In this document: positions 6,661-40,995 of the stretch, in pieces
Layout of the letters: every line of letters starts with the position of its first letter
How positions within the stretch are numbered: position 1 is the first letter of the stretch
Assembly: GCA_001512945.1 (NCBI GenBank)
Contig: LFTF01000061.1
Coordinates: forward strand, 29,165 to 70,159
Origin: Clostridiales bacterium DTU023
GTDB taxonomy: Bacteria > Bacillota > Clostridia > Saccharofermentanales > DTU023
Reading direction: 5' to 3'
Length of the DNA: 40,995 nucleotides
Translations under genes and position numbers: made by a program
The notes under the pieces: generated by a model
Databases searched by the model: none
What the model was told of the DNA's origin: nothing
The model's input: the letters and a program-made list of their open reading frames with translations, nothing else

Positions 6661-6894
6661 GCGTTCGTCTTCTAAGTCATTTACTCGACATCGTGGACTC
6701 AGTAGAATATCTGTTTTGGCTACCGCGTTCATTATTGTGATCAAAACTAATAAAAAGATGTATGAAAAGTTACTGTCGCAAACGACAAACAGCGTTAAAA
6801 TAGATGGGTTAACAGTGTAGTTGTTACATTGGGAAGAAATTACAGATGGGCGTCCGATTTAAGAGATACCTATGGAGATAAGGGGAGGATCAAG

Positions 6895-18255: not shown

Positions 18256-19389
18256 ATGAAAAAACTACTCGCAATTTTGCTTGTCGTATTGATGGCATTC
18301 ACCATCGTTGCTTGCGATAAGAAGCCGGAAGAACCGGCAAAAACGGATCCGGTAGCTACAGAACCGGCCGGTGATGTGTATAAAGTCATCAACCTCGTCA
18401 ATGGGAACCTTGGCGACAAGTCGTTCTTTGACTCGGCAGAAGCCGGGCTCAAGAAACTGGCTGATGCCGGACGCATTACATACGAAACCAAAGAGATGGG
18501 TGCTACTGACGCTGACCAGCCTAAGTGGCAGCAAACCATTAACGACGTCGCGGCTGAAGGTAAATATGACCTGATCATCTGTGGCACATACCAAATGCCT
18601 GACTACCTTAAAGAAGCGGCAACCGCCTATCCTGACCAGAAGTTCCTCATCTATGATGACACAACTTATGTTGGTGATAACAGCAATGTCGTTAACGTAA
18701 GCTACCGTCAGAATGATATGGGCTATCTTATCGGTGTTTTCGCGGCATCGATGACATCTCAAACAGACGTTGAAAACATGAATCCGGAAAAAGTTCTCGG
18801 CTTCATCGGCGGCATTGACAGCCCCGTTATCAACGACTTCCTTTATGGTTTCCTCGAAGGCGCCAAGGCGACCGACCCTGAAATCAAAGTGGATACACGC
18901 TATGTCAACAGCTACGCAGATACAGCGACAGCCAAAGAGATGGGCCTTGCCATGATCAATGACAACAAAGTTGACATCATCTGGGGTGTTGCGGGTCTAT
19001 CCGGCAACGGCGGCGCAGAAGCGGCATTAGAGACCGGCAAAGCCTGGTTTGTCGGGGTTGACTCCGATCAGGAGCTCACGCTCTCCAAGGAACTGGCTGC
19101 TATCACGCTTACATCAGGCCTCAAGAACATTGGCGATTCACTTATGTGGATTTTCGACGAGTGGGATGCCGGCCGCACCTATTGGGGCAAGGAAGTAAAC
19201 CTTGGTCTCCCCGAAGGCGGTGTTGGTATTGTTACCGATAAGAACTTCGCAAAATATGCGCCACAGGCAGTGCAAGATAAAGTCGCTGAAGCTGAAAAAG
19301 GCGTGCGCGATGGATCCATTAAAGTTTCCTCTGCAATCGGCGATGAGACAGACGGTGTTGTCAAGCTGCGCACAGAGCTACAGCCATAA
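18256..19389 (+). CDS. BMP-family (Med/PnrA/NupN-like) ABC substrate-binding lipoprotein, probable nucleoside binding
   Basis: AAGGAGAAAG SD. Lipoprotein signal peptide MKKLLAILLVVLMAFTIVAC with lipobox Cys. BMP-like body (GFIGGIDSPVINDF, GVAGLSGNG). Confidence 0.8.
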   Translation: MKKLLAILLVVLMAFTIVACDKKPEEPAKTDPVATEPAGDVYKVINLVNGNLGDKSFFDSAEAGLKKLADAGRITYETKEMGATDADQPKWQQTINDVAAEGKYDLIICGTYQMPDYLKEAATAYPDQKFLIYDDTTYVGDNSNVVNVSYRQNDMGYLIGVFAASMTSQTDVENMNPEKVLGFIGGIDSPVINDFLYGFLEGAKATDPEIKVDTRYVNSYADTATAKEMGLAMINDNKVDIIWGVAGLSGNGGAEAALETGKAWFVGVDSDQELTLSKELAAITLTSGLKNIGDSLMWIFDEWDAGRTYWGKEVNLGLPEGGVGIVTDKNFAKYAPQAVQDKVAEAEKGVRDGSIKVSSAIGDETDGVVKLRTELQP

Positions 19390-19440
19390 GAAGCGATTGC
19401 TTCTAACTGACAGCATTATCGGGAATTAGTTGATTGAATG

Positions 19441-19469
19441 AAAGGGGATCTGCTCGCAGGTCCCCTTTT
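19441..19469 (+). terminator. Intercistronic hairpin / partial terminator after the binding-protein gene
   Basis: AAAGGGGAtC...GgTCCCCTTTT. A second hairpin follows: GTGCCG (19484-19489) pairing with CGGCAC (19498-19503). This arrangement commonly raises the ratio of binding protein to the other transporter subunits. Confidence 0.5.
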
Positions 19470-19567
19470 GCCTATCAGGAGGAGTGCCGGTTCCGGACGG
19501 CACGCTTTGTAAGTGACGATCAGACCGGTTATTTTTACAAAATGATGTAGACGGGGGAACGAATCGA

Positions 19568-21127
19568 ATGGAGCAAAACGAACTCGTTGTCCAGATGAAG
19601 GGGATATCAAAAATCTATCCCAACGGTGTTGCGGCGAATCGGGATGTTAATTTTTCTGTGAAAGCTGGTGAAATCCATGCACTGATCGGAGAAAACGGTG
19701 CAGGGAAATCGACGCTGATGAAAATTCTCTTTGGGCTTGAACGGCCCACGGGAGGAGAGATTATAGTCAACGGCGAACCGGTGCATTTCTCATCTCCTAC
19801 TGATGCCATTGAAAAAGGCATCGGGATGGTACATCAGCACTTCATGCTCGTCCCGAGCCTGACAGTTGCTGAAAACATCGTGCTTGGGATGGCACCGAGA
19901 AAATCTGGATTATTTATTGACTATAAGCAGGCAGTTGACTTAACCAAGGAATACGCGGAACAATTCAATCTTCACGTTGAACCGACCGCACGAGTCGCTG
20001 ATATAGCTGCAGGTATGAAACAAAAAGTAGAAATACTCAAGGCACTTGTGCGTGGAGCACGCGTCCTTATACTCGATGAGCCGACAGCCATCTTGACGAC
20101 TCAGGAAACGGTAGGTTTGTTTCGGGAGTTGAAGGAACTCAAGGCCAAGGGCTTCACAATTATCTTTATCTCTCACAAGTTGAATGAAATCAAAGAACTC
20201 ACAGACCGCATCACGATTATGCGTGGGGGCAAAACAGTCGGTGTCTACGAGACCGACTCTATAACGGAGCAGGAGATTTCAGGACTCATGGTTGGCCGCG
20301 ATGTCATCCTGACTGTTGAGAAAGACCAATCTGAGCCAAAGGAAGTCGTCCTTCAAGTTGAAGACCTCAACTTCGTTAACGAATGGGATAAGCGTGTGCT
20401 CGATGGTGTCACGTTTTCTGTTCGCAGTGGAGAAATTGTCGGCATTGCAGGTGTTGAGGGCAACGGTCAACGTGAGCTTGTCGATGTACTCTTTAGCCTC
20501 AAGCTTCCGGAAAAAGGTTCAGCGACAGTGGGTGGAAAGAGTCTGATCGGGTTGCCACAGGCTATGATTCGGGAACTTGGCGTATCTTATATACCAGAGG
20601 ATCGTATGACATTCGGCATTGCTGATATCGCGACTATTGAAGAAAATATGATTTCAGACCGTTTCAATCAAAAGCGTTTCAATCGTGGACCTCTGTTTAA
20701 AATGAACGAGCTTCACAAGGAAACTGATCAGCTGATCGTAGACTATTCTGTTCTCTGTAAGTCGCGCAGCCAAGAGGTTGGGATGCTGTCCGGTGGCAAT
20801 ATCCAAAAAGTGGTCGTTGCGCGTGAGTTTTCAAGTGATCCGATCCTTATCATCGCTGACCAGCCAACGCGCGGCATTGATGTCGGCGCAACGGAAATGA
20901 TCAGAAAAAGACTCGTTGAGCTATCGAGGGCAGGAGCTGCGGTGCTATTAGTTTCGGCAGACTTGAATGAAGTTATGGAACTATCTGATAGCCTGATCGT
21001 ATTCTATGAAGGCAAGATCGCAGGCTATTTCGACGATGGACAGTGGGACGATATCATGATGGGTGAATACATGCTCGGGCTGAAACGCCAGAGCGATGAG
21101 GAGATTGCGAGGGCTTCCTATGCGTGA
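19568..21127 (+). CDS. ABC transporter ATP-binding protein, duplicated ATPase (sugar/nucleoside CUT2 type)
   Basis: 519 aa. Walker A GENGAGKST and Walker B LILDEPT in the first half. LSGGNIQKV signature and IIADQPTRGID in the second half. Confidence 0.85.
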   Translation: MEQNELVVQMKGISKIYPNGVAANRDVNFSVKAGEIHALIGENGAGKSTLMKILFGLERPTGGEIIVNGEPVHFSSPTDAIEKGIGMVHQHFMLVPSLTVAENIVLGMAPRKSGLFIDYKQAVDLTKEYAEQFNLHVEPTARVADIAAGMKQKVEILKALVRGARVLILDEPTAILTTQETVGLFRELKELKAKGFTIIFISHKLNEIKELTDRITIMRGGKTVGVYETDSITEQEISGLMVGRDVILTVEKDQSEPKEVVLQVEDLNFVNEWDKRVLDGVTFSVRSGEIVGIAGVEGNGQRELVDVLFSLKLPEKGSATVGGKSLIGLPQAMIRELGVSYIPEDRMTFGIADIATIEENMISDRFNQKRFNRGPLFKMNELHKETDQLIVDYSVLCKSRSQEVGMLSGGNIQKVVVAREFSSDPILIIADQPTRGIDVGATEMIRKRLVELSRAGAAVLLVSADLNEVMELSDSLIVFYEGKIAGYFDDGQWDDIMMGEYMLGLKRQSDEEIARASYA

Positions 21128-22253
21128 CAAACGGATGACGATGTTTAATATGCTCCGCGGCGCGGCGGCAATCGCGCTTGCGCTTGGGGTCGGAGCGATC
21201 TTTATCTTTTTGAGCTCTGATGAACCTTTGACTGCGCTTCGGTACCTCCTGATCGGACCTATTGTGAGCTTTAGGGACTCAGGAGTCTCCTTCAATGCTC
21301 AATATCTGTTTCAGATTTTTGCAGGTATGATCCCGATAACATTCACGGGACTGGCTGTCTGCGTGATGTTCTCCGCTAACCAGTTCAACCTGGCAGCCGA
21401 GGGCTGTGTTCTCGCGGGCGGTTTCGTCGGAGGTATTCTCGGCGTCTACTTGAATATCAATTCAGGATGGCACGCTGTTGTCTGTGTTTTGGTCGCAACC
21501 GTTGTGGGCGGCTTAATAATGCTGATTCCAGCATTACTTAAAGTCAAGCTTGGTTCCAGCGAGATGGTGACAAGCTTGATGTTGAACTTTATTATTCTTT
21601 ACATAGCGATGCATTATCTCAACTTTCACTTTGCCGACCGCTCCAAGGGTTCGACGATGACGTACCCGTTCAAACCGACTGCCATCATCCCTTCGCTTGT
21701 TCCGGGGAATAGTAAAATGACGGTTGGAATCATTGTTGCGCTACTTGCAACCGTGCTCATTGCATTCTTTATGTATCGAACACGTTGGGGTTATTCCATC
21801 CGCATGATCGGTATAAATGAGTCATTTTCACTGTACTCAGGTATGAAAGTGGGGAGTACGATTGTTCTGGCACAAGTGATTGGCGGTATGCTGGCGGGCA
21901 TGGGTGGAAGCTTAGAAGTTCTAGGCCGTTATCAGACGTATTTGTGGCGTGACCTGCCCGGCTACGGCTGGGTAGGCATTACGATCGCCATTCTGGCTAA
22001 AAATAATCCTGCTTTTGTGCCATTGGCAGCTTTCTTTATCGCTTACCTCAACAAGGGTTGTCTACTGATGTCTACGTATTGTGACGTTCCTGTCGAAATG
22101 ATTGACATCATCCAGGCAGCGATTTTCCTCTTCTTTGCCGCGGAGCAGTTCATGTCAGGATTCCGTCAAAAACTAGTCGTTAAGACAACACGGGAGGATT
22201 TGATGAAGCTCGAGACACAACGACGATTAGAGGGGGGTAGTAACAATGCTTAG
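21120..22253 (+). CDS. ABC transporter permease (NupP-like)
   Basis: Polytopic membrane protein. The start is uncertain: ATG 21120 lies after GAGGG, and alternatives are 21096 and 21135. It overlaps the ATPase stop. Confidence 0.75.
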   Translation: MRDKRMTMFNMLRGAAAIALALGVGAIFIFLSSDEPLTALRYLLIGPIVSFRDSGVSFNAQYLFQIFAGMIPITFTGLAVCVMFSANQFNLAAEGCVLAGGFVGGILGVYLNINSGWHAVVCVLVATVVGGLIMLIPALLKVKLGSSEMVTSLMLNFIILYIAMHYLNFHFADRSKGSTMTYPFKPTAIIPSLVPGNSKMTVGIIVALLATVLIAFFMYRTRWGYSIRMIGINESFSLYSGMKVGSTIVLAQVIGGMLAGMGGSLEVLGRYQTYLWRDLPGYGWVGITIAILAKNNPAFVPLAAFFIAYLNKGCLLMSTYCDVPVEMIDIIQAAIFLFFAAEQFMSGFRQKLVVKTTREDLMKLETQRRLEGGSNNA

Positions 22254-23193
22254 CCTCTTACAATCTCTTTTTAAGCCAGATTTTCTTTTTGCTGTTTTGC
22301 GAATTACTGCGCCGATACTCTTCGCAACACTCGCGGCGGTCGTCGCGGAAAGGGCAGGAGTCGTCAACATCGGTCTTGAAGGCATGATGATGATTACGGC
22401 TTTGTTCGGTTTTCTGTTCAGCTACTGGACGCAAAGCTGGGTGCTTGGTGTCCTCGGCGCGATTATGGTTGGTGTGCTGCTGGGCTTGATGATGGGCTTT
22501 TTTGCCTTAAAACTTAAAACAGACATCATCCTGGCCGGTATCGCTATCAATATGCTCGGCGCTGGCGGAACCATATTTATGCTTAATATGTTTACGGGAC
22601 TGCGTGGCAACACGGGCAATCTGGTTTCTCCCAACCTTCTGATTCCGACAATCCAAATCCCTTTAATCAACAAAATTCCCATTCTCGGCGAGATACTGAG
22701 CGGCCATGCCGTCCTCACGTATGTCGCGTTTCTGTGTGTTTTCTTGGTGTGGATATTGATTTATAAGACGCCGATTGGATTGAATATCCGGGCGGTGGGC
22801 GAGAACCCCGACGCTGCTTCCAGTGTGGGTGTCAGTGTGCTCAAGATCAAATATATCGCGATTGGGATTTCAGGCGGATTGGCCGGTTTGGGCGGCGCAT
22901 TCATGTCGATGTATTATTCGCAGGGATGGAATTCCGGCATGGTCGCAGGACGTGGATTTATTGCGCTTGCTGCTCAGGCGATGGGCAGAGGGGAACCGGT
23001 TGGCGCTATGTTGTCCTCGTTGCTATTCGGACTTGCTCAGGCTTTACGAACCAAAGTTTCGGGGCTCCAGGGTGTCTCAAGCTTCCTTGTCTCGATGATT
23101 CCCTATGCTGCTACACTTCTGGGACTTGTCGCTTATTCTATTAGCCTCAAGCGGAAAGCGCGCAAACACGTCATCAAGGTGGTTAAAAATTAG
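22246..23193 (+). CDS. ABC transporter permease (NupQ-like)
   Basis: 315-aa polytopic membrane protein with an 8-nt overlap with the previous permease gene. Confidence 0.8.
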   Translation: MLSLLQSLFKPDFLFAVLRITAPILFATLAAVVAERAGVVNIGLEGMMMITALFGFLFSYWTQSWVLGVLGAIMVGVLLGLMMGFFALKLKTDIILAGIAINMLGAGGTIFMLNMFTGLRGNTGNLVSPNLLIPTIQIPLINKIPILGEILSGHAVLTYVAFLCVFLVWILIYKTPIGLNIRAVGENPDAASSVGVSVLKIKYIAIGISGGLAGLGGAFMSMYYSQGWNSGMVAGRGFIALAAQAMGRGEPVGAMLSSLLFGLAQALRTKVSGLQGVSSFLVSMIPYAATLLGLVAYSISLKRKARKHVIKVVKN

Positions 23194-23220
23194 ACTCCGA
23201 GATTCGGAATGGGGGACGGC

Positions 23221-24165
23221 ATGAAAAAAACTCCGGTGATTCTCGACGGTGACCCGGGTCACGATGATGCGATTGCCTGGGTGCTCGCGAAAGCGAGCAC
23301 CCAGCTTGATATTCTGGCGGTAACAACGTGTTGCGGCAATCAGACGCTTGAAAAGACGACTTACAACGCGGGACGCATCATGGCTCTTATCGGGCTTGAC
23401 GTCCCCCTTGCAGCCGGTCGAATAAAGCCACTTCTCGCTGATCCGATGGTGGCGCCTTCCGTGCATGGTGTATCAGGACTTGACGGACCTGATTTGCCGT
23501 CGCCGCTCCGCGAACCGCTCACAATTGATGCGGTAACACTCATGGCGCAATGTGTGGAGCAACAAAGTGACCAGGTCGCATTGATCCCGACAGGTCCCAT
23601 GACGAATATCGCGGCATTTTTGCTCTTATATCCACAACTCAAAAATAAGATCAGCCATATCTATTTGATGGGCGGCGGCATTGGGCATGGAAACTGGACC
23701 CCGGCAGCCGAGTTCAACATACTGGTTGATCCTGAGGCGGCTGATATTGTTTTCCGCTCGGGTATCCCGATCACGATGGCAGGTTTAGACGTCACAGAGC
23801 AAGCATTGCTCTATCCTGAAGATTTTGACAGGATAGGCGCTATCGGAAGTGAGGTCGCCAAAGTCACGGCCGGATGGCTTGAGTTTTTTTACGGATTTCA
23901 TCGTGCGCTGGGTTACCACGGTGCTCCCGTGCACGACGCTGTCGCTGTGGCGGCACTCATCCGTCCTGATCTTCTCACATTCCAAGATTTGTATGTTGAG
24001 ATTGAAACAACGGGTGATTACAGCCGGGGCGCAACCATCGGGGATGTTTATGGCATCTCGAACAAACCAGCCAATGTGAGATGCATTGTGGACATCGACC
24101 GTGAAGGATTTGTCGATTTGCTCGTCGACGCTGTGAGGTTTTACGGGAGAGATGCAGATGAGTGA
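23221..24165 (+). CDS. Ribonucleoside hydrolase (inosine/uridine-preferring, IUNH family), copy 1
   Basis: VILDGDPGHDDAIA (the DxDxxxDD Ca2+/ribose motif), GPMTNIA and AEFNILVDPEAA. ATG 23221 lies after GGGGGA; the ORF is open from 23209. Confidence 0.85.
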   Translation: MKKTPVILDGDPGHDDAIAWVLAKASTQLDILAVTTCCGNQTLEKTTYNAGRIMALIGLDVPLAAGRIKPLLADPMVAPSVHGVSGLDGPDLPSPLREPLTIDAVTLMAQCVEQQSDQVALIPTGPMTNIAAFLLLYPQLKNKISHIYLMGGGIGHGNWTPAAEFNILVDPEAADIVFRSGIPITMAGLDVTEQALLYPEDFDRIGAIGSEVAKVTAGWLEFFYGFHRALGYHGAPVHDAVAVAALIRPDLLTFQDLYVEIETTGDYSRGATIGDVYGISNKPANVRCIVDIDREGFVDLLVDAVRFYGRDADE

Positions 24166-25213
24166 TTTAACACAACACAAGGCAGGCAATCTTGACATCT
24201 TAAGAAAAATTCCTGTGAGAAAGACGCCTTTTAAAGCGCAAGCACCCGACAAATTCGAGTCGACCTGTTTTTCAAAACAACCGAAAATTCCCGTATGGTT
24301 CGATTGTGACACGGGGGTTGACGACGCAATTGCGCTTCTCCTACTGCGGCATCTCACTTGCTTTGATCTGATCGGGGTTTCTACCGTGGCGGGCAATGTT
24401 GAACTCGAAAAAACGACGCACAACACGCTCTGTGTTCTCGAACTGACAGGTGACGACGTGCCTGTTTATCGCGGCGCATCACAGCCTCTGATCCGCGATC
24501 AGATTATGGCGCCTGAGGTTCACGGCAAAAACGGACTAGGCGATGTCGAGTTGCCGCAACCTTCCAAACAATTGGAGGCTAAGAATGCCTGGGATGCACT
24601 TTACGACGCGGCACTCGCACACCCCGGCGAACTCGTACTGATTGCTGTGGGACCTATGACAAATATTGGTCTCGCGCTCGCAAAATACAAAAACCTCCCT
24701 CAACTGCTGAAACGTATCGTTATTATGGGAGGCGCGGCGAAAGGCGGGAACACAACGCCGTCGGCGGAGTTTAATATTCTGGTGGATCCTGAAGCGGCCG
24801 ATATGTTGTTCAATTGCGGGGTCCCTGTCGCAATGTGCGGACTTGATATGACGTTGAAGGCATACCTGACTCCGGAAGAGCTTGACGAACTTGGGAATCT
24901 CGGCTCGCCGCAGGCATCGTTTGCGCGCGACTGTCTACAGAATGCGTTACGCTACTCGCTTTCCCTTGGGTTTGGGGGAATCAGCCTACACGATCCGGCC
25001 GCAATACTCTATGCTGCAGACGAATCGATCTTTGAACAGTATCCTGCATGGGTGCGAGTTGAAACAAAAGGCGCAATAACGTATGGAAAGACAGTGACGG
25101 ATCTCTACTCCGACAAAAAGATGCCGGAACGCAATCACATGGTGGTGACCGATGTCGACCGTGAAGCGTTCAAAGCCCGTTTATTTAATTTGATGAAAAG
25201 GTATAACGGTTAA
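24152..25213 (+). CDS. Ribonucleoside hydrolase (IUNH family), copy 2, with a ~45-aa N-terminal extension
   Basis: WFDCDTGVDDAIAL, GPMTNIG and AEFNILVDPEAA. There is no in-frame ATG/GTG/TTG near the canonical N-terminus except GTG 24215, which has no SD. It overlaps copy 1 by 14 nt. Confidence 0.8.
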   Translation: MQMSDLTQHKAGNLDILRKIPVRKTPFKAQAPDKFESTCFSKQPKIPVWFDCDTGVDDAIALLLLRHLTCFDLIGVSTVAGNVELEKTTHNTLCVLELTGDDVPVYRGASQPLIRDQIMAPEVHGKNGLGDVELPQPSKQLEAKNAWDALYDAALAHPGELVLIAVGPMTNIGLALAKYKNLPQLLKRIVIMGGAAKGGNTTPSAEFNILVDPEAADMLFNCGVPVAMCGLDMTLKAYLTPEELDELGNLGSPQASFARDCLQNALRYSLSLGFGGISLHDPAAILYAADESIFEQYPAWVRVETKGAITYGKTVTDLYSDKKMPERNHMVVTDVDREAFKARLFNLMKRYNG

Positions 25214-28468: not shown

Positions 28469-29287
28469 ATGCCCAGTCTAAAAAAACTGGAAATTAAGAA
28501 AAAGCAAGTCGATAAGCTTACGAATGAACTGCAAAATGCTGAATCAATCGTATTCGCCGACTACAAAGGCTTGACTGTAAAACAGGATACTGAAATGCGG
28601 GCGGAATTCCGTCGGCAGGGCCTGAATTACAAGGTCGTCAAGAATTCGATCTCAGAACGCGCGTTTGAAAAACTCGGTATAGAAGGCTTGGAAGAGACCT
28701 TGCAAGGACCAACCGCCATCGCGTATAGCGATGCGGATGTTGTATTAGCGCCCCGTATGATGCGTATATTTGCTGAGAAATTCAAAAAAATGAGCGTCAA
28801 AGGCGGCGTAGTGGGTAAGCAAGTTCACGAACTTGACTACATCATGGCTCTATCACGCGTAGAATCGCGTGAAACGCTTTACGGTCAGCTATTGTTCATG
28901 ATGCTCTATCCGTTGACGGCGTTTGTACAGGTTGCCTCGCAGATTGCGGAAAAAGGCGCCGAAGCAGGCGTTGAGAACGTCGCAGATGTTGAGGCCGGAG
29001 AGATGGAACAGCAGGAGCAAGTAGCCCCTACCGATGAAGCCGTTGAAGTGCCGGAAGAATCAGCCCCTGCCGATGAAGCCGTTGAAGTGCCGGAAAAAGA
29101 AGCTGCTGTCGAAGAAGTCGTTGAAGTACCGGAAGAAGTAGCCGCTGTCGAAGAAGCCGTTGAAGTACCGGAACAAGTAGCCGCTGTCGAAGAAGCTGTT
29201 GAAGTGCCGGAACAAGCAGCCGCTGTCGAAGAAGTCGTTGAAGTGCTAGAAGAAGAAGCTTCAGTCGAATCGACGGATCAAGCATAA
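28469..29287 (+). CDS. rplJ: 50S ribosomal protein L10 with a ~100-aa acidic tandem-repeat C-terminal extension
   Basis: AAGGAGGAAAG SD. Residues 1-~170 look like normal L10 (ESIVFADYKGLTVKQDTEMR...). The protein is 272 aa, against the usual ~165-175. Confidence 0.9.
   Translation: MPSLKKLEIKKKQVDKLTNELQNAESIVFADYKGLTVKQDTEMRAEFRRQGLNYKVVKNSISERAFEKLGIEGLEETLQGPTAIAYSDADVVLAPRMMRIFAEKFKKMSVKGGVVGKQVHELDYIMALSRVESRETLYGQLLFMMLYPLTAFVQVASQIAEKGAEAGVENVADVEAGEMEQQEQVAPTDEAVEVPEESAPADEAVEVPEKEAAVEEVVEVPEEVAAVEEAVEVPEQVAAVEEAVEVPEQAAAVEEVVEVLEEEASVESTDQA
29024..29257 (+). repeat. Six head-to-tail 39-bp (13-codon) tandem repeats inside rplJ
   Basis: Units start at 29024, 29063, 29102, 29141, 29180 and 29219. 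They encode APTDEAVEVPEES / APADEAVEVPEKE / AAVEEVVEVPEEV / AAVEEAVEVPEQV / AAVEEAVEVPEQA / AAVEEVVEVLEEE. A degenerate partial seventh unit runs to the stop. Confidence 0.95.
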
Positions 29288-32511: not shown

Positions 32512-33579
32512 ATGTACACATTTTGCTATCTCATGTTCGCGATTCCCATGCAAATGGCGACGAACCCATTGCCGCTAGGTCTCCTTATCATCTTAATCGG
32601 TCTGCTTGCCGTTGTACTCGCTTACATTACGTTTGAAGTGTATCTTGCCTGGTCACTGTTTCGATACTCGGTAAAAAGAGCTAAGAAGGACGACAGCGCA
32701 GATACTGCGTATGTGCCCGAGGAAACGCTAGATTGGTATAAAACGGTAGAAGAAAAGAAAAAAGATTTGTTTTCACGGCCGCACGAGAATTGGGAGATGG
32801 AACACGATGGATTGACGTTGAGAGGGATCTTTTTTCCCGCTCAAGAGCAAAATCTGTCTACACGTTTCGCTGGCGGCTGCGCAGTTGTTGTGCACGGTTG
32901 GCGTGATGTACGGTTTTCGCGTGCGATCGACGTAATATTATATCTTGATTCGGGATTCTCCGTTTTTGTTCCCTTCCTCCGTGGTCATGAACCGAGCGGA
33001 GGTAAGTATATTGATCTTGGTTGCCATTACCGGAAAGATCTCTTTGCCTGGATAGATCAAATACGTGCCCGATCAGACAATGAAAGCCCTTCGTTTTATA
33101 TTCTGGACGGCTTATCCATGGGCGCTGCCACAGTACTTACCACAAGTGGAGACGATGATTTACCCAGAGATGTTCGTGCTATTCTTGCCGATTGCGGATA
33201 TTCATCATTTTTGGAACAGGGAAAGTGGATGATCCGTGGGATGAAACCGATTATCCGTTACCCTGCATTCTTTTTTACGCTTGGCTTCTTGCGAATCATA
33301 ATGGGATACAAGAAGAGCGATCCTACTCCCTTGACACAGGTAGCCAAGGCATCTGTCCCGATTATGATTATTCACGGGGAGGACGACTTGTTCGTACCCC
33401 CTCCGATGGGAAAAAAGCTTCATGATGCCTGTGCGTCGGAACTCAAAGATTTCTGGCTCGTAAGTGGAGCAAAACACGCAATGTCACAGAGGGTGGCAGG
33501 GGATGAATATTTGGCAAGGAAACTGGCTTTCATCGAAGAGGCACTCAAGCGCGCCTCCGACGAACGCGGTCATTCGTAG
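32512..33579 (+). CDS. Membrane-anchored alpha/beta-fold hydrolase (serine esterase/peptidase S9-like)
   Basis: AGGAGG SD, N-terminal TM, nucleophile elbow GLSMGAAT, and downstream HGEDD...H. Confidence 0.65.
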   Translation: MYTFCYLMFAIPMQMATNPLPLGLLIILIGLLAVVLAYITFEVYLAWSLFRYSVKRAKKDDSADTAYVPEETLDWYKTVEEKKKDLFSRPHENWEMEHDGLTLRGIFFPAQEQNLSTRFAGGCAVVVHGWRDVRFSRAIDVILYLDSGFSVFVPFLRGHEPSGGKYIDLGCHYRKDLFAWIDQIRARSDNESPSFYILDGLSMGAATVLTTSGDDDLPRDVRAILADCGYSSFLEQGKWMIRGMKPIIRYPAFFFTLGFLRIIMGYKKSDPTPLTQVAKASVPIMIIHGEDDLFVPPPMGKKLHDACASELKDFWLVSGAKHAMSQRVAGDEYLARKLAFIEEALKRASDERGHS

Positions 33580-33953
33580 TTTAGCGGATGGCTTGCATGA
33601 TAGTGGAGTAGTTTGATTTCATCATCTATTTCCAGATCGCGGTCACCGGCGCGGTTTTCGAGATGGTGTGTGAGCTCGTGTTTTAAAACATGCTCGAGTT
33701 CCCGCAAGAACACCTCATCGGGCGCGTGCTGAAATACGCGATACAAAGATCCATAGTAGATCACGACGTAGCGTCCGAAAATTCTGTCACGGTAATATTC
33801 TCCAAGAATAAAAAGATCATCGGCACGCCGATTTGGGTGCAGTCTGATTTCATCCTTGAGCAGAACCCCGCCGTTGAGATCAATAAAAATCTCTTCCGGC
33901 AGCGCTTCAACCATTCTGGCCAGCGCTAGTTGCGTTTCTTCCAGTGTCAACAT
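33570..33953 (-). CDS. Small zincin-like metallopeptidase-family protein (DUF1025-like)
   Basis: HELTHH (HExxH) near the C-terminus. ~127 aa from ATG 33953; the ORF track starts at TTG 33962. Its 3' end overlaps the convergent hydrolase gene by 10 nt. Confidence 0.55.
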   Translation of the reverse strand: MLTLEETQLALARMVEALPEEIFIDLNGGVLLKDEIRLHPNRRADDLFILGEYYRDRIFGRYVVIYYGSLYRVFQHAPDEVFLRELEHVLKHELTHHLENRAGDRDLEIDDEIKLLHYHASHPLNYE

Positions 33954-34053
33954 ATAACACAAGTATACACCCGTGCATATGAACGCTGACGTTTGGATCG
34001 AATCCTGAATCCATTCATAACGAAAATGTTATAGTCATTGAGACATTTTGTAT

Positions 34054-34082
34054 TTGACGCTCCGCTGTCAGCGTGATAACTT
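34054..34082 (+). promoter_or_regulatory. Candidate promoter of the mdcA-like operon
   Basis: TTGACG (34054-34059), 17-nt spacer, TGa-TAACTT (hexamer 34077-34082). The spacer contains GTCAGCGT, one arm of an inverted repeat. Confidence 0.45.
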
Positions 34083-34179
34083 TTAGATAGGAGATCCGGC
34101 CTCACAGGCTGGATGTTTCTTGATATTTATTCGTACCGTTATGCTTATTTCAAAACATTGCGCGAGGGAGGTTTTTTAT

Positions 34180-35811
34180 ATGAATTGGCACAGTAGACGA
34201 GATGGGAAACGAGCACGACTTGAGCGCGCGTCTTCCTGGGTCGATCACAAACTTGTCGGGACGGAGTCGATCGCCGCTGTGCTCGAAGCTATCATGCGGC
34301 CGGGAGACCGTGTGATCCTCGAAGGTGACAACCAGAAACAGGCGGCATTCCTGGCAAAAGCGCTGACGCAAGTAGATTCGGGCAAAATCAACGGCATTAC
34401 GATGATGATTCCCTCCATTTCCCGGGACGAGCACCTTGATGTTTTTGACAAGGGCATTGCAAGCGAGATCAATTTTGCCTATGCCGGTGTACAGAGTGTG
34501 CGTCTTGCCAAGATGCTCGAAAACAATAAGCTAAAGATTGGCGCCATCCACACTTATCTGGAATTGTACTCACGACTTTTTGTTGATCTCATTCCTGATG
34601 TTTGTCTTATCGCGGCCGAAAAAGCCGACGAAGATGGCAATCTTTACACAGGGTATAGCACGGAAGATACCCCTGTCTTGGTCGAGGCAGCTGCCTTTAA
34701 CCATGCGGTTGTGATCGTACAGGCTAATGAAATCGTGGCAAGAGGCAAGTTGCCTCGTGTCGATATTCCCGGTGACTGGGTTGATCTTGTTGTTGAATCT
34801 GACGAACCGTACCAGATGGAAGCGCTGTTCACGCGCGATCCACGTAAAATTCGTGATTCTCATATCCTTATGGGTATGATGACAATCAAAGGTATTTACG
34901 CCAAACACGGCGTCGTATCGCTTAACCACGGCATCGGCTACAACGGCGCCGCGATCGAGCTACTCTTGCCGACCTACGGGGAAGAGCTGGGTCTCAAAGG
35001 TAAAATTTGTCGTCACTGGGTTCTGAACCCACATCCCACTATGATTCCCGCCATCGAAAAAGGATGGGTCAAGAGCATGTACACGTTCGGCGGGGAGAAG
35101 GGTATGGAGCGATACACACAGGCGCGTTCTGATATATTCCCCACCGGTCGTGACGGGACGCTCCGCTCGAACCGGGCATTTGCTCAGATAGCCGGTCTCT
35201 ACGGGATCGATCTGTTCCTCGGGGCCACACTCCAGATGGATTATCTAGGCAATTCATCGACCGTGACAAGCGGGCGACTCACAGGTTTCGGAGGGGCTCC
35301 CAACATGGGGCACAACACGCTTGGACGTCGTCATTCGTCAGACGCATGGATGGATATGATGCCCAATCCGGGTAAATCGCTGATTCGCGGAAAAAAACTT
35401 GTCGTCCAGATGCTGGCTAGCCAGGGACGTTTTGGCGTGAATTTTGTTCCGGAACTTGACGCCGTCAGGATCGGACGCGAAGCTGGTTTCGACGCGCCGC
35501 CTGTCATGATTTACGGAGAAGATGTCACACATGTTGTAACAGAGCAGGGGATTGCGTACCTCTACCTCGCAGAAAGCGATGAGGAAAAGACGCAGATGCT
35601 CGGTGCTGTCGCACAAGGCACCCCGATCTCAGAGCACGCAGGGGTAAAGGTAGTCGAGGCGCTCCGGAAAGCCGGTAAGATCGCGCTCCCGGAAGACCTG
35701 GGTATTGATCCTGTCAAGGCTACGCATGACCGTCTTGTGGTACAGTCGCTCGACGAACTTGTTGAATTATCCGGCGGTCTTTATGATATCCCGGAAAGTT
35801 TTCGAAAATAA
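34180..35811 (+). CDS. mdcA: Malonate decarboxylase alpha-subunit (MdcA/MadA)-family acyl transferase
   Basis: 543 aa from ATG 34180 with GAGGGAGG SD. The N-terminal WHSRRDGKRARLERA...RPGDRVILEGDNQKQAAFLAKALTQVD... matches the MdcA pattern as I recall it (...GDRVCLEGNNQKQADFLS...). The length is right for MdcA (~550 aa). Confidence 0.7.
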   Translation: MNWHSRRDGKRARLERASSWVDHKLVGTESIAAVLEAIMRPGDRVILEGDNQKQAAFLAKALTQVDSGKINGITMMIPSISRDEHLDVFDKGIASEINFAYAGVQSVRLAKMLENNKLKIGAIHTYLELYSRLFVDLIPDVCLIAAEKADEDGNLYTGYSTEDTPVLVEAAAFNHAVVIVQANEIVARGKLPRVDIPGDWVDLVVESDEPYQMEALFTRDPRKIRDSHILMGMMTIKGIYAKHGVVSLNHGIGYNGAAIELLLPTYGEELGLKGKICRHWVLNPHPTMIPAIEKGWVKSMYTFGGEKGMERYTQARSDIFPTGRDGTLRSNRAFAQIAGLYGIDLFLGATLQMDYLGNSSTVTSGRLTGFGGAPNMGHNTLGRRHSSDAWMDMMPNPGKSLIRGKKLVVQMLASQGRFGVNFVPELDAVRIGREAGFDAPPVMIYGEDVTHVVTEQGIAYLYLAESDEEKTQMLGAVAQGTPISEHAGVKVVEALRKAGKIALPEDLGIDPVKATHDRLVVQSLDELVELSGGLYDIPESFRK

Positions 35812-35839
35812 ACGATAGATGACGTAGGAGGGTAAATTT

Positions 35840-37387
35840 TTGCTCACTGAAAAACAGAAAAAATTGACGCAACTCAAAGAAGTGCTGGCGAAAGGCGGCG
35901 GAGACAAAGCCGTTGAGCGTCAGCATGACCGTGGAAAAATGACAGCCCGCGAGCGCGTTATCGCACTCTTCGACGACAAGAGCTTTGTAGAGACGGGACT
36001 CTTTGTCAAACACCGCGCCACGCAGTTTGGTATGGATACAAAACAGGCGGCAGGTGACGGAGTGGTCACGGGATATGGCACGATTGACGGGCGCCTTGTC
36101 TGTGTTGCCGCACAGGATTTCACTGTAATCGGTGGTTCTTTAGGCGAAATGCATGCTGACAAGATTGTTCGTACGCAGGAAATGGCGATGAAAGTCGGCG
36201 CCCCTATGATCTGCATCAATGACTCGGGGGGCGCGCGTATTCAGGAGGGGGTTGATAGCCTCGCCGGATATGGGCGCATCTTTTACAACAACACAAAGGC
36301 TTCGGGCGTTATCCCTCAGATTTCGGTCATCATGGGACCGTGCGCGGGAGGCGCCGTCTATTCGCCGGCATTGACTGATTTTGTCTTTATGGTGGATAAC
36401 ACGAGCGAGATGTTCATTACGGGACCGCAGGTTATTAAGGCAGTCACCGGAGAAGAAGTGACAGCTCAGGAGCTTGGCGGCGCGATGACCCACAATAGCG
36501 TCAGCGGCGTCGCCCATTTCCGGGCCGCGGATGAACAGGAGTGCCTGCTTCAAATCAAGACGCTTCTTAGTTATCTGCCACAAAATAATTTGGAAAAACC
36601 AAATACTGTTGACTGTTTCCAGGATCCCAATGCTATGATCGAATCCCTGAACTCACTGATCCCGGCAGATCCGCGGACACCCTATGATATGAAGGATCTC
36701 ATTCACAGCGTTGCGGACGGCGGCGAATTTTTAGAAGTGCAGCCCTATTATGCTCAAAACATAATCACGGGTTATCTGCGACTTAATGGGGAGAGTGTTG
36801 GGGTGATCGCGAATCAGCCGCGCGTGATGGCCGGTTGTCTCGATATCAACGCCTCAGACAAAGCCTCCCGATTTATCCGAACGTGCGATGCATTTAACAT
36901 TCCGCTGCTGACACTTGTGGACGTACCGGGATTCCTTCCGGGCACACAGCAAGAATACGGTGGGATTATACGTCATGGCGCAAAATTGCTGTTTTCATAC
37001 AGTGAAGCGTCTGTTCCCAAAGTGACGCTGATCGTGCGCAAAGCTTACGGCGGAGCCTACATCGGTATGTGCTCCAAGCATCTAGGAGGAGATATTGTGC
37101 TCGGGTGGCCCGATGCGGAGATCGCAGTCATGGGGGCAGAGGGGGCGGCGAATATCATCTTCTCGCGCGAGATCAGAGCAGCGGACGATCCGGAGGCCAA
37201 GCGTCAAGAAAAGATCGCTGAATACTCAGAGGGAATGATGAGCCCTTATATCGCGGCGGAGAGAGGATATCTGGATGATGTCATTATGCCGGAGGAGACG
37301 CGTCAGCGGTTGATCTCATCATTTGACACGCTGCGAGGGAAACGCATGACCGTGATCTCGAAAAAACATGGCAACATGCCTTTGTAA
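35840..37387 (+). CDS. Acyl-CoA carboxyltransferase, single-chain 12S/MmdA/PccB type (decarboxylase alpha subunit)
   Basis: 515 aa, TTG start with AGGAGGG SD. GKMTARERV..., DFTVIGGSLGEMHADKI, INDSGGARIQEG, GPCAGGAVYSPALTDF and the second-half KAYGGAYIGM are all canonical. Confidence 0.85.
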   Translation: MLTEKQKKLTQLKEVLAKGGGDKAVERQHDRGKMTARERVIALFDDKSFVETGLFVKHRATQFGMDTKQAAGDGVVTGYGTIDGRLVCVAAQDFTVIGGSLGEMHADKIVRTQEMAMKVGAPMICINDSGGARIQEGVDSLAGYGRIFYNNTKASGVIPQISVIMGPCAGGAVYSPALTDFVFMVDNTSEMFITGPQVIKAVTGEEVTAQELGGAMTHNSVSGVAHFRAADEQECLLQIKTLLSYLPQNNLEKPNTVDCFQDPNAMIESLNSLIPADPRTPYDMKDLIHSVADGGEFLEVQPYYAQNIITGYLRLNGESVGVIANQPRVMAGCLDINASDKASRFIRTCDAFNIPLLTLVDVPGFLPGTQQEYGGIIRHGAKLLFSYSEASVPKVTLIVRKAYGGAYIGMCSKHLGGDIVLGWPDAEIAVMGAEGAANIIFSREIRAADDPEAKRQEKIAEYSEGMMSPYIAAERGYLDDVIMPEETRQRLISSFDTLRGKRMTVISKKHGNMPL

Positions 37388-37399
37388 AGGAGACAACGG

Positions 37400-37762
37400 A
37401 TGGATTTTCAAAATCTGACTTTCGGCAATAGCCTTCTCGTCTCGGCTTTCAGTATTCTGATCGTGTTTCTCGTGCTTCTTTGTATCTCTTATCTCGTGGA
37501 TGGCACAGCATTTTTTGCTAACCGAAAAAAGAGAGGCAAAGAATTACTTGCATCAGGTGATGCCTCACAAGATAACTCGTCTGAAGACGCAGAGAGTCAA
37601 AATGAAGTAGATATGAAAACAGCTGCCATCATTATGGCGGCGATTACAGCCTATTCACAGAGCGATACGCGCTTTGTTATAAGAAAAATCGAACGCCGCG
37701 AGGCGACTCTTTCCGACTGGGAAGCAGCGGGCATCCGGGATACGCTCCGGCGCCCGTCATAG
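37400..37762 (+). CDS. OadG/MmdD-family small membrane subunit of a Na+-translocating decarboxylase
   Basis: 120 aa. N-terminal TM ([22 protein letters not shown]) and C-terminal [11 protein letters not shown] motif. Confidence 0.7.
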
Positions 37763-37778
37763 AAGGGAATCGTATACC

Positions 37779-38177
37779 ATGACGATCAAAACATTTCGTA
37801 TTGTGATTGACGGCGTTGAGCACTACGTCGAAGTCGAGGAGATCCGAGAGGGTAGTTCGGCGGCGCCCGTGCCTACGGTATCGCGTCCAATACCAACAGC
37901 GGCTGTCGCGCCCCCCGTGAGATCAGCTCCAAAAGTGGCCCCGCCCCCTCAGGCGTCTGCTTCGGGCAATGTCGTCACCGCGCCCTTACAGGGCACGATA
38001 CTCGAGATTGCGGTCAAAGAGGGTGACACGGTGAAAGCCGGTGATATCCTCGTCGTCATTGAAGCCATGAAGATGGAAAATGAGATCGTCGCGCCGGGTG
38101 ATGGCGTAATTGGCGGTATTCATGTCAATAAAGGAGATGTTGTCCGGGCAGGCGAACTGCTCATTTCTTTCAAGTAG
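37779..38177 (+). CDS. Biotin carboxyl carrier subunit
   Basis: 132 aa. Ala/Pro-rich linker, then a biotinyl domain with EAMKMENEI. Confidence 0.85.
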
Positions 38178-38186
38178 GAGATCACA

Positions 38187-39350
38187 ATGCTGAAAATCCT
38201 CGTCGATTTTTTCCAAAATTCAGGCGTCGTGGAATTGTTTCGCTTCGACACGGAGTTGTTCGGAATCATGTTACCCGGCAAGCTGATTATGATTGCGCTT
38301 GCCTGCCTGTTCATCTATTTGGGAGTAAAAAAAGGATATGAGCCGTATCTGCTGATCCCGATCGCGTTTGGGATGCTTCTGGCCAATCTCCCGCTGACAG
38401 GTCTTCTGGACGGACCGCTTGGCAATCAGCCGGGCGGCCTCATATACTATCTGTATCAGGGGACGGCACTTGGTATTTACCCGCCCTTGATCTTCCTCTG
38501 TATCGGAGTAGGGACGGATTTTGGTCCTCTGATCGCCAACCCGAAAAGTCTGCTTCTGGGTGCTGCCGCACAACTCGGCATCTTTGCCACTTTCCTAGGC
38601 GCGATGGCGCTCAAGTTCACTCCGCAACAAGCGGCCTCGATCGGCATTGTCGGAGGCGCGGACGGGCCGACGGCATTGTTCTTGACGAGCCGGCTTGCGC
38701 CGGAACTACTGGGACCGATCGCAATCGCCGCCTATTCTTATATGGCACTGGTGCCGATTATTCAGCCTCCGATCATGAAGGCGCTCACGACAAAAAAAGA
38801 GCGCGAAATCAAGATGGAGCAACTCCGCGAAGTCAGTCAGAAAGAGAAAATTCTCTTTCCGATTATTGTCACGCTTTTCACCGTTGTGCTGCTTCCCTCG
38901 GCCGGAGCGCTGATCGGAATGCTGATGCTAGGGAATTTGTTGAAAGAGTCGGAGCGGGTGCCGCTTCTTGTCAACGCGATCCAGAATTCACTGATGTATA
39001 TTGTCTCGATTCTGCTTGGTTTGACAGTGGGAGCCACAGCGACGGCAGAAACATTTCTGACGCCCAGTACGCTTATGATCATAGGTCTCGGGCTTGCCGC
39101 ATTCTCTTTTGGAACTGCGAGCGGTGTGCTCTTGGGCAAACTGATGTGCTTGCTCACCAAGGGCAAAGTCAATCCGTTGATTGGCGCGGCTGGCGTATCA
39201 GCCGTACCGATGGCTGCCCGTGTCGTCCAGAAAGAAGGCCAAAAGTATAACCCGTCTAATTTCCTGCTCATGCATGCGATGGGGCCCAACGTGGCAGGCG
39301 TAATCGGCTCTGCGGTTGCCGCCGGTCTGCTGTTGAGTTTCTTCGGTTAA
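38187..39350 (+). CDS. Na+-translocating decarboxylase beta subunit (OadB/MmdB/GcdB family)
   Basis: 387-aa polytopic membrane protein. Family-typical segments are LLIPIAFGMLLANLP, LLGAAAQLGIF and GGADGPT. Confidence 0.85.
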   Translation: MLKILVDFFQNSGVVELFRFDTELFGIMLPGKLIMIALACLFIYLGVKKGYEPYLLIPIAFGMLLANLPLTGLLDGPLGNQPGGLIYYLYQGTALGIYPPLIFLCIGVGTDFGPLIANPKSLLLGAAAQLGIFATFLGAMALKFTPQQAASIGIVGGADGPTALFLTSRLAPELLGPIAIAAYSYMALVPIIQPPIMKALTTKKEREIKMEQLREVSQKEKILFPIIVTLFTVVLLPSAGALIGMLMLGNLLKESERVPLLVNAIQNSLMYIVSILLGLTVGATATAETFLTPSTLMIIGLGLAAFSFGTASGVLLGKLMCLLTKGKVNPLIGAAGVSAVPMAARVVQKEGQKYNPSNFLLMHAMGPNVAGVIGSAVAAGLLLSFFG

Positions 39351-40881: not shown

Positions 40882-40995
40882 TCAGGCACTCTCTTGCGAC
40901 ATCGATAATTTGCGGAAATAATCGATCAAAAAATCTGCAAACAAGATCTCGTACTTGCTGAGTTCTCGTCGGTCAAGTGTGCTGAGGTTAATGAA
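40882..40995 (-). CDS. Possible 3' end of a convergent gene running off the window
   Basis: 37 open codons on the minus strand (…FINLSTLDRRELSKYEILFADFLIDYFRKLSMSQESA*) ending at TGA (reverse complement of 40882-40884). This is too short to distinguish from chance. Confidence 0.25.
   Translation of the reverse strand, partial: FINLSTLDRRELSKYEILFADFLIDYFRKLSMSQESA

Follow-up and report, generated by a model that had tools for sequence, protein, structure and literature searches.

Malonate is decarboxylated in Klebsiella pneumoniae, Pseudomonas, and Acinetobacter by MdcACDE (PDB 5VIT), a soluble, biotin-independent system that includes the acyl carrier protein (ACP) MdcC, the split carboxyltransferase MdcD/E, and MdcB, MdcG, and MdcH. 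The MadABCDEF(GH) system of Malonomonas rubra combines activation by an MdcA/MadA-family protein with transfer of the carboxyl group to a biotin protein and an OadB-family Na+ pump, and uses MadE as its ACP and MadC/MadD as its split transferase. A different set of genes, mmdADCB, encodes the Na+-translocating methylmalonyl-CoA decarboxylases of Veillonella parvula and Propionigenium modestum. The Mmd enzymes of Veillonella and Propionigenium also decarboxylate malonyl-CoA. Here, we analyzed 40,995 nucleotides (nt) of DNA from Clostridiales bacterium DTU023 (the window; GenBank assembly GCA_001512945.1, contig LFTF01000061.1, positions 29,165 to 70,159), in which an mdcA-like gene heads an operon whose other four genes are of the mmd type. 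We propose, with a probability of roughly two in three, that this operon encodes an ACP-independent, biotin-dependent, Na+-translocating malonate decarboxylase that would work through free CoA thioesters.

The product of the mdcA-like gene shares the malonate-binding, oxyanion, and diphosphate-binding residues of MdcACDE, but the operon is without the MdcC ACP, MdcD/E, and MdcB/G/H, and decarboxylation would be biotin-dependent and membrane-linked. The logic of the Mad system, from activation to pump, is shared, whereas no ACP is encoded and a single-chain acyl-CoA carboxyltransferase stands in place of the split one. Genes 2 to 5 belong to the same families as MmdADCB and follow the same A-D-C-B order, and a free CoA-thioester substrate is presumed. 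Unlike in MmdADCB, the transferase gene is preceded by an MdcA-family gene with which it co-diverges, there is no mutase or epimerase context, and the proposed substrate is malonyl-CoA. The system would be a variant within the biotin-dependent, Na+-translocating decarboxylases and is widespread in uncultured anaerobes. The chemistry that we propose matches the malonyl-CoA route of Sporomusa malonica, which is known only biochemically and has no gene assignment; Dehning and Schink reportedly found in 1994 that this organism degrades malonate via malonyl-CoA. Classical malonate decarboxylases, such as that of P. ovalis, are said to have malonate CoA-transferase activity toward free CoA esters. 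S. malonica is described, in a passage of PMC8085960, as a strict anaerobe that lives on malonate decarboxylation, and malonate CoA-transferase (EC 2.8.3.3) was listed in a 2021 review as lacking a KEGG orthologue (PMC8307300).

An earlier reading of this DNA, made from the letters alone (the sequence-only reading), had not recognized the architecture as characterized. Our full-text literature search, with most subscription journals outside it, likewise returned no description of an mdcA+mmdA operon, and nothing on Sporomusa malonica genes or on anaerobic barbiturate/ureidomalonate metabolism. The five genes lie co-directionally on the + strand at 34180-39350, where the sequence-only reading had placed them, and are separated by gaps of 28, 12, 16, and 9 nt (Table 1). 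The motifs it quoted (GDRVILEGDNQKQAAFLAKAL, DFTVIGGSLGE, NDSGGARIQEG, GPCAGGAVYSPA, and EAMKMENEI) were each found in the translations, and its family calls (Mal_decarbox_Al, Carboxyl_trans, OAD_gamma, Biotin_lipoyl, and OAD_beta) all held in hidden Markov model searches. As it had also stated, a split MdcD/E is not present, the only such protein being a single Carboxyl_trans chain of 515 amino acids (aa).

The window MdcA is 59% identical over its full length to MdcA of Pseudomonas aeruginosa (PDB 5VIT) and scores 786.8 against the NCBIfam equivalog TIGR01110, just below the cut-off of 789.15. In a neighbor-joining tree of MdcA sequences only, the MdcAs linked to mmd genes (referred to as clade-II) formed one bipartition that was recovered in 100 of 100 bootstrap replicates. 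Identities are 53-63% between the clades and 56-100% within classical MdcA, making the between-clade divergence barely larger. The MdcA/MadA-family assignment of the sequence-only reading thus stands with respect to MdcA, with the window protein in a clade separate from classical MdcA, and the placement is one among MdcA sequences.

In the Pseudomonas holoenzyme, malonate is contacted by R341, N292, Q345, and F312, with N59, Y134, and G381 nearby; N258 and I261 are oxyanion residues, and R228 lies near the diphosphate (PMC5534430). The interface with MdcC and MdcE involves F424, E466, I490, R521, R500, helix 501-508, and residues 515-525, and the F424A mutation abolishes the hetero-tetramer (PMC5534430). 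We mapped these residue sets via the 59%-identity alignment and compared them in 134 clade-II and 67 classical sequences. Ten pocket or catalytic residues are conserved in the window (N51, Y126, R219, N249, I252, N283, F303, R332, Q336, and G372), and the pocket and catalytic residues are the same in both clades, in all 134 clade-II sequences save for one alignment gap. At the MdcC-contact positions, where E, F, E, E, G, I/V, and R would be expected in that order, the window instead carries A413, Q415, P424, Q456, Q479, G480, and P511. Such replacements run across clade-II and are confined to it (P. aeruginosa numbering). F424, which is F or Y in 66/67 classical sequences, is Q, R, S, K, or A and never aromatic in clade-II; E466 (E in 65/67) is Q or H; and G489 with I/V490 becomes Q then G. 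E422 is replaced by K, A, or S; E434 (D in 6 classical sequences) by P; and R521, mostly R in classical MdcA, mostly by P. The residue at position 425, present in classical MdcA, is deleted in 12 of the 14 clade-II sequences checked. An unbiased column scan yielded 15 clade-discriminating positions, 6 of which fall inside the 37 interface columns defined beforehand (odds ratio 10.7, Fisher p = 2e-4), and 19 clade-II loci from metagenomes show the same residue signature. The simplest reading is that clade-II MdcA would have kept malonate chemistry and abandoned docking to a carrier protein. Neutralization of the acidic patch at the pocket mouth would, we infer, suit free CoA with its extra 3'-phosphate.

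Linkage of the two gene types was assessed in 160 fetched loci, the counts below being among the loci listed. A scan of the genome collection with the MdcA alignment gave at least 80 loci, whose flanks were classed by tblastn with the window proteins and Klebsiella mdcB-H as queries. Where MdcA was at least 61% identical to that of the window, an MmdA-type transferase lay directly downstream in all 13 of 13 genome loci, together with the D, C, and B genes where the contig runs on. These loci come from metagenome-assembled genomes labeled Mageeibacillus/Saccharofermentanales, Clostridiaceae, Erysipelotrichaceae, Angelakisella, Lachnospiraceae, and Spirochaetaceae. Where identity was 60% or lower, all 67 of 67 genome loci were flanked by classical mdc genes only (mdcB/C/D/E plus G/H in most, fewer on a few short contigs); these loci belong to relatives of Bacillus, to enterobacteria, Burkholderiales, Pseudomonas, and actinomycetes. 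The same split emerged from an independent scan of metagenomes, with 19 clade-II loci (14 with mmdA) and 47 classical ones. When the clade-II loci were pooled, mmdA was directly downstream in 30/35, as the classical mdcBCDEGH genes never were. Among the 18 loci with enough sequence, 16 also had mmdC and mmdB, spaced by gaps of a few nt, and of the 14 loci that extend far enough to show it, 8 had an amidase orthologue after mmdB. Since the same order recurs in independent lineages, the arrangement is not due to chance. Pairwise identities of MdcA and of the transferase co-vary (Spearman 0.66; 26 loci, 325 pairs), which fits inheritance of the two as a unit. Clustered at 90% identity, clade-II comprises over 130 groups, and it is frequent in metagenomes from anaerobic digesters, the rumen, and the gut. 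When cluster membership was examined for cultured hosts, all names obtained were those of metagenome-assembled genomes.

The nearest structures to the transferase are those of acyl-CoA enzymes, namely Thermotoga PCC-beta (1VRG), the 12S transcarboxylase subunit (1ON3), and PccB structures (3N6R), and glutaconyl-CoA decarboxylase GcdA is only a distant match. Its structural kinship is therefore that of an enzyme for which the carboxyl donor is a CoA ester of the malonyl or methylmalonyl type, and we propose that it is a malonyl-CoA carboxyltransferase. For the OadB-type subunit, the score against TIGR01109 was 475 (cut-off 190.6); the MadB equivalog TIGR03136 was not reached (183 vs 597). In OadB, residues D203, Y229, N373, G377, S382, and R389 are essential. 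All six residues of Salmonella OadB (6IVA) are conserved in the window, as D159, Y185, N329, G333, S338, and R345.

Clade-II MdcA would be a malonate CoA-transferase because its pocket is conserved, ACP docking is lost, and its gene is linked to that of an acyl-CoA carboxyltransferase. It would move CoA from acetyl-CoA onto malonate, yielding malonyl-CoA and acetate (EC 2.8.3.3 chemistry), by the anhydride mechanism and in the pocket of classical MdcA, with free CoA replacing the MdcC-bound dephospho-CoA arm. The carboxyl group of malonyl-CoA would then pass to the biotin protein, and the OadB-type subunit, complexed via the OadG-type anchor, would decarboxylate carboxybiotin and export Na+. 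The net reaction, in its presumed physiological direction, would be malonate + H+ -> acetate + CO2. Energy would be conserved as a sodium-motive force, and acetyl-CoA would be needed only in catalytic amounts. The malonate itself probably comes from the reactions of the downstream amidase and the wider cluster.

This pathway, a malonate:acetyl-CoA CoA-transferase feeding a Na+-translocating malonyl-CoA decarboxylase, was the first of two alternatives in the sequence-only reading, and it draws support from four independent lines. The MdcA clade is linked strictly to MmdA-type transferases and never to mdcBCDEGH. The malonate pocket is conserved while the MdcC-docking surface is replaced clade-wide. 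A biotin ligase gene lies beside the operon, joined by BioY in loci L098 and L096, and the flanks contain no gene for methylmalonyl-CoA mutase or epimerase. Finally, genes in the neighborhood could plausibly make or import malonate.

Several observations weigh against the proposal. No malonate transporter lies next to the operon in the window. The C-terminal segment of MdcA, which is part of the holoenzyme interface, keeps its length. The ACP search described below covered the window and the clade-II loci, so a remote mdcC or madE is possible. We also attempted to read substrate specificity from the position of Streptomyces PccB D422, which is I408 in the window; this position is uninformative because I, L, or V also occurs there in genuine propionyl-/methylmalonyl-CoA enzymes (1VRG, 12S, and 3N6R). 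Moreover, the pump module is not an obligatory neighbor, because it is missing from three settings. Locus L010 and loci L101-L103, whose MdcA is very abundant (on 336 contigs), have only mdcA and the transferase, with no anchor, carrier, or pump genes nearby. In a human-gut lineage (five loci: L115 and L117-L120), MdcA is 65-66% identical to that of the window and bears the full clade-II signature, but no carboxyltransferase is found within 10 kb of mdcA; the partner is presumably encoded elsewhere. One locus of this lineage (L119) has a LysR gene upstream of mdcA and a BirA-type biotin ligase gene downstream.

Such loci are what one would expect if a soluble MdcA-transferase pair were the functional unit, acting as a malonyl-CoA-dependent transcarboxylase or a non-pumping decarboxylase, with the pump genes of the window being a lineage-specific addition or shared with another decarboxylase. 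Yet 16 of the 18 sufficiently long loci have the carrier and pump genes immediately after the transferase gene, and the catalytic and Na+-site residues of the pump are intact in the window. We regard this explanation as unlikely for the window operon; it bears more on energy coupling in other lineages.

A role in the succinate-to-propionate pathway is similarly improbable. Here, the operon would encode a methylmalonyl-CoA decarboxylase, and MdcA would be a succinate (or methylmalonate):propionyl-CoA CoA-transferase. The four downstream genes do show the canonical mmdA-D-C-B order and families, and the sequence of the transferase, whose top NCBIfam match is mmdA (TIGR01117), is compatible with methylmalonyl-CoA. 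However, its score of 858 stays below the cut-off of 998.8, a result at odds with the tight clustering with methylmalonyl-CoA decarboxylases that the sequence-only reading had named as a threat to its proposal, and NF047903 (MmDecMmdC) is likewise not reached (84 vs 200). Methylmalonyl-CoA mutase and epimerase, which the same reading had listed as signs of this pathway, are encoded neither in the 41-kb window nor in any clade-II flank, and the neighbors are amidase, Mo-hydroxylase, and AllFGH-like genes rather than succinate-pathway genes. The narrow malonate pocket (R341, N292, Q345, F312, N59, Y134, and G381) is unchanged from that of classical enzymes, a feature that speaks against succinate, the longer molecule. 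A possible second substrate is methylmalonate, which thymine might provide.

The second alternative of the sequence-only reading was that malonate is carried by a remotely encoded ACP served by a CitX-CitG fusion (CitXG), encoded at 1022-2515. MdcA would load malonate onto a CitD/MdcC-type ACP, such as one matured by CitXG, and the transferase would use malonyl-ACP. All characterized MdcA/MadA proteins do act on an ACP, the C-terminal segment of MdcA is kept, and the genome encodes both the fusion and, some 8 kb upstream, an ACP of the CitD type. As had been claimed, no ACP gene lies in or next to the operon: tblastn at E <= 1 detected no MdcC/MadE/CitD-like ACP and no MdcB/D/E/G/H in the window or in seven related loci, its sole matches being the CitG part of CitXG and, weakly with the MdcD/E models, the two halves of the transferase. 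None of the 35 clade-II loci has an ACP, MdcB, MdcG, or MdcH. On contigs with an identical CitXG, about 5-8 kb upstream of it and outside the window, lie genes for glutamate mutase E, methylaspartate ammonia-lyase, a CitD-type ACP (PF06857), a CitE-like protein, and CitF. The citramalate lyase of the methylaspartate route of glutamate fermentation is an ACP enzyme of the citrate lyase type, and this cluster looks like methylaspartate-pathway glutamate fermentation with such an enzyme. The obvious client of CitXG is thus the adjacent ACP-CitE-CitF set. Throughout clade-II, moreover, other residues stand at the MdcC contacts, among them the critical position F424, and the acidic patch around them has disappeared. 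In addition, the transferase is of the acyl-CoA class. The nearby client and the lost docking surface together disfavor this alternative, and we give it little chance. Oxalate or oxalyl-CoA as the substrate (from oxamate, by an allantoin-type route) was rejected in view of the unaltered malonate pocket and of the enolizable alpha-carbon that a biotin carboxyltransferase would need.

If the operon works through free malonyl-CoA as proposed, it would supply genes for the orphan EC 2.8.3.3 and a genetic basis for the anaerobic malonate route via malonyl-CoA, and many uncultured anaerobes would probably gain energy from malonate in this way. A free malonyl-CoA thioester would add a variant to the few decarboxylation-driven sodium pumps. 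The path from ACP-transferase to CoA-transferase would also be an evolutionarily clean one, in which the pocket stays and only the carrier-docking surface is lost. Parts of the operon are consistently mis-annotated; the database label on clade-II MdcA is "malonate decarboxylase subunit alpha." The mmdA gene serves in gut metagenomics as a marker for the succinate pathway of propionate formation. With such a marker, these operons could be miscounted as propionate producers.

The genes neighboring the operon point to malonate made from an N-heterocycle. On contigs identical to the window, the amidase gene that follows the operon is succeeded by genes for a LysR regulator (-), a biotin ligase, a xanthine/uracil-family permease (-), and an XDH-family Mo subunit (-). 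A Fastidiosipila-like locus (L098), syntenic from rplJL on, carries amidase, LysR, BirA, BioY, the Mo, FeS, and FAD subunits, PucR, AllH, and AllF. Two loci (L011 and L012) have mmdB-amidase-AllF-AllG-cyclase-FAD subunit on one strand. In L010, mdcA-mmdA lies between the FAD subunit and XdhC genes, with PucR, AllH, AllF, and AllG alongside. Acetonema longum (L095, AFGF01000115) carries an orthologous Mo-hydroxylase cluster, AllF-AllG-cyclase-carbamate kinase-amidase-FAD-FeS-Mo, in one direction; this species is a cultured member of the Sporomusaceae.

AllFGH of Escherichia coli is an oxamic transcarbamylase that converts oxalurate and Pi to carbamoyl phosphate and oxamate in the anaerobic allantoin pathway (PMC11326118). 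AllF/G/H-like genes cluster here with the operon or its Mo-hydroxylase, in Acetonema also with carbamate kinase. Unlike in the E. coli pathway, however, genes for allantoinase, allantoate amidohydrolase, and ureidoglycolate dehydrogenase are absent, and the clusters carry a Mo-hydroxylase, a cyclase-family hydrolase, an amidase, and the malonate module. The comparison suggests that the substrate of the AllFGH-like proteins may be a homologous acyl-urea, such as ureidomalonate, rather than oxalurate.

A tentative interpretation, which we consider plausible but would not favor, is that the operon forms the last, energy-conserving stage of a pathway by which anaerobes would degrade pyrimidines oxidatively. 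An NCS2 permease would take up uracil, possibly thymine, and the three-subunit Mo-hydroxylase would make barbiturate, whose ring would be opened by the cyclase-family (isatin-hydrolase-like) amidohydrolase to give ureidomalonate. The AllFGH-like proteins would phosphorolyze ureidomalonate, the one-carbon homologue of oxalurate, to carbamoyl phosphate and malonamate. Carbamate kinase would form ATP from carbamoyl phosphate, the amidase would yield malonate and NH3, and clade-II MdcA with MmdADCB would turn malonate into acetate and CO2 and pump Na+. This scheme would assign a single task to every conserved gene of the extended cluster, and anaerobic pyrimidine catabolism would yield both ATP and a Na+ gradient.

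Three findings keep us from rating the pathway as more than plausible: the Mo subunit reaches no equivalog cut-off, the nearest structures to the amidase are peptide amidases, and amidase orthologues occur elsewhere. Those orthologues (68-79% identity) follow an SCFA_trans gene in L097, L099, and L100, preceded by HutP in L097 and L100. These three loci are without mdc or mmd genes, which counts against both the pyrimidine pathway and the proposed link of the amidase to malonate decarboxylation; they suggest that other Clostridia take up a small amide and hydrolyze it. The amidase of the window is a candidate malonamate (or ureidomalonate) hydrolase that would supply malonate. Its identification as an orthologue of malonamidase E2 (MAE2) was dropped, MAE2 being distant (87 bits) and the peptide amidases closest. 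A further point against pyrimidines as the source comes from the rumen Erysipelotrichaceae loci, where the operon is followed only by a gene for an AEC-family transporter (MdcF superfamily), which fits direct uptake of malonate in these hosts. This gene, which lies after mmdB in L006 and L007, was rejected as an MdcF orthologue: the relationship is at superfamily level (26% identity, E = 0.02), and the gene is frameshifted in L006.

MdcA homologues also occur in other settings. The divergent neighbors of mdcA in L101-L103 encode LysR, an M20 amidohydrolase, an ATC_hydrolase-like protein, and a sodium:solute symporter, and they may point to another malonate route. Four contigs from soil metagenomes (L158, L173, L143, and L178) encode homologues with 56-58% identity and a mostly classical signature, for which no partner of the mdc or mmd kind was detected at E <= 0.01. 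In the two annotated contigs, L158 and L173, the flanks encode a protein of the Asp/Glu/hydantoin-racemase family (the arylmalonate decarboxylase family), a branched-chain-type ABC transporter, and a PAS histidine kinase. Such loci form a third, orphan context of MdcA-family proteins.

Table 1. Positions in the window of the operon genes and adjacent features, with the match or remark for each
Feature	Position	Strand	Match or remark
Upstream intergenic region	33963..34179	+	Ribosome-binding site of the mdcA-like gene; promoter and regulator-binding region presumed
mdcA-like gene, clade-II MdcA homologue, 543 aa	34180..35811	+	PF16957, 830 bits
Single-chain acyl-CoA:biotin carboxyltransferase, MmdA/PccB/12S type, 515 aa	35840..37387	+	PF01039, 670 bits
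OadG/MmdD-type membrane anchor, 120 aa	37400..37762	+	PF04277, 40 bits; TIGR01195, 36.6 vs cut-off 36.05
Biotin carboxyl carrier protein, 132 aa, EAMKM biotinylation motif	37779..38177	+	PF00364, 73 bits
OadB/MmdB-type carboxybiotin decarboxylase, predicted Na+-translocating, 387 aa	38187..39350	+	PF03977, 523 bits
Amidase-signature amidase, 492 aa	39386..40864	+	PF01425, 314 bits
LysR-family regulator gene, convergent, 3' end; runs off the window	40882..40995	-	Window-identical contigs

The mdcA-like gene starts at ATG 34180, 8 nt after a GGGAGG Shine-Dalgarno sequence. The mechanical start of its open reading frame (ORF) is TTG 34120, but homology to MdcA begins only at ATG 34180. A consensus scan found a hairpin with a T-run upstream of the gene, at 34094-34114. 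An upstream regulatory RNA was considered and dropped, as the window gave no match to any Rfam family. The amidase gene is the sixth gene, 35 nt after the OadB-type gene; no terminator-like site was found between the two, and the amidase gene is probably co-transcribed with the malonate operon. The LysR gene is complete on a window-identical contig (L081 11065-11964), where it encodes 299 aa with HTH_1 and LysR_substrate domains, and a LysR gene also adjoins mdcA in L006, L011, L012, L098, L101, and L119. The neighboring LysR was rejected as an orthologue of Klebsiella MdcR, their 22% identity being generic LysR similarity. Divergent from mdcA, a 130-aa ORF at 33570-33962 (-) has a HELTHH (HExxH-like) motif and falls into no Pfam family; its synteny is kept in L001, L003, L004, L081, and L098.

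The other content of the window is housekeeping: PGK-TIM, iPGM, PFOR, DnaB/DnaI-like genes, secE-nusG-rplKAJL, a nucleoside ABC transporter, and two nucleoside hydrolases. The nucleoside cluster, at 18256-25213, looks like one for salvage or catabolism: beside the transporter genes (a Bmp/PnrA-like binding protein, an ABC ATPase, and two permeases), it has two inosine-uridine-preferring nucleoside hydrolase genes in tandem. Its activity would free nucleobases and may be relevant to the neighboring heterocycle-catabolic cluster. Upstream of CitXG, separated by a 4-nt gap, a 318-aa ORF (61-1017) is conserved with it (L087/L088 1-5000) and matches no Pfam or NCBIfam family; it might be an unrecognized ligase or accessory gene. 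Phosphoglycerate kinase and triosephosphate isomerase are encoded at 6829-8841 as one 670-aa ORF, a fusion (PGK-TIM) known from Thermotoga. The ribosomal protein L10 ORF at 28469-29287 (272 aa) is unusual among bacterial L10 proteins in that acidic repeats (AVEVPE/EEVVEVPE-like) extend its C terminus by about 100 aa.

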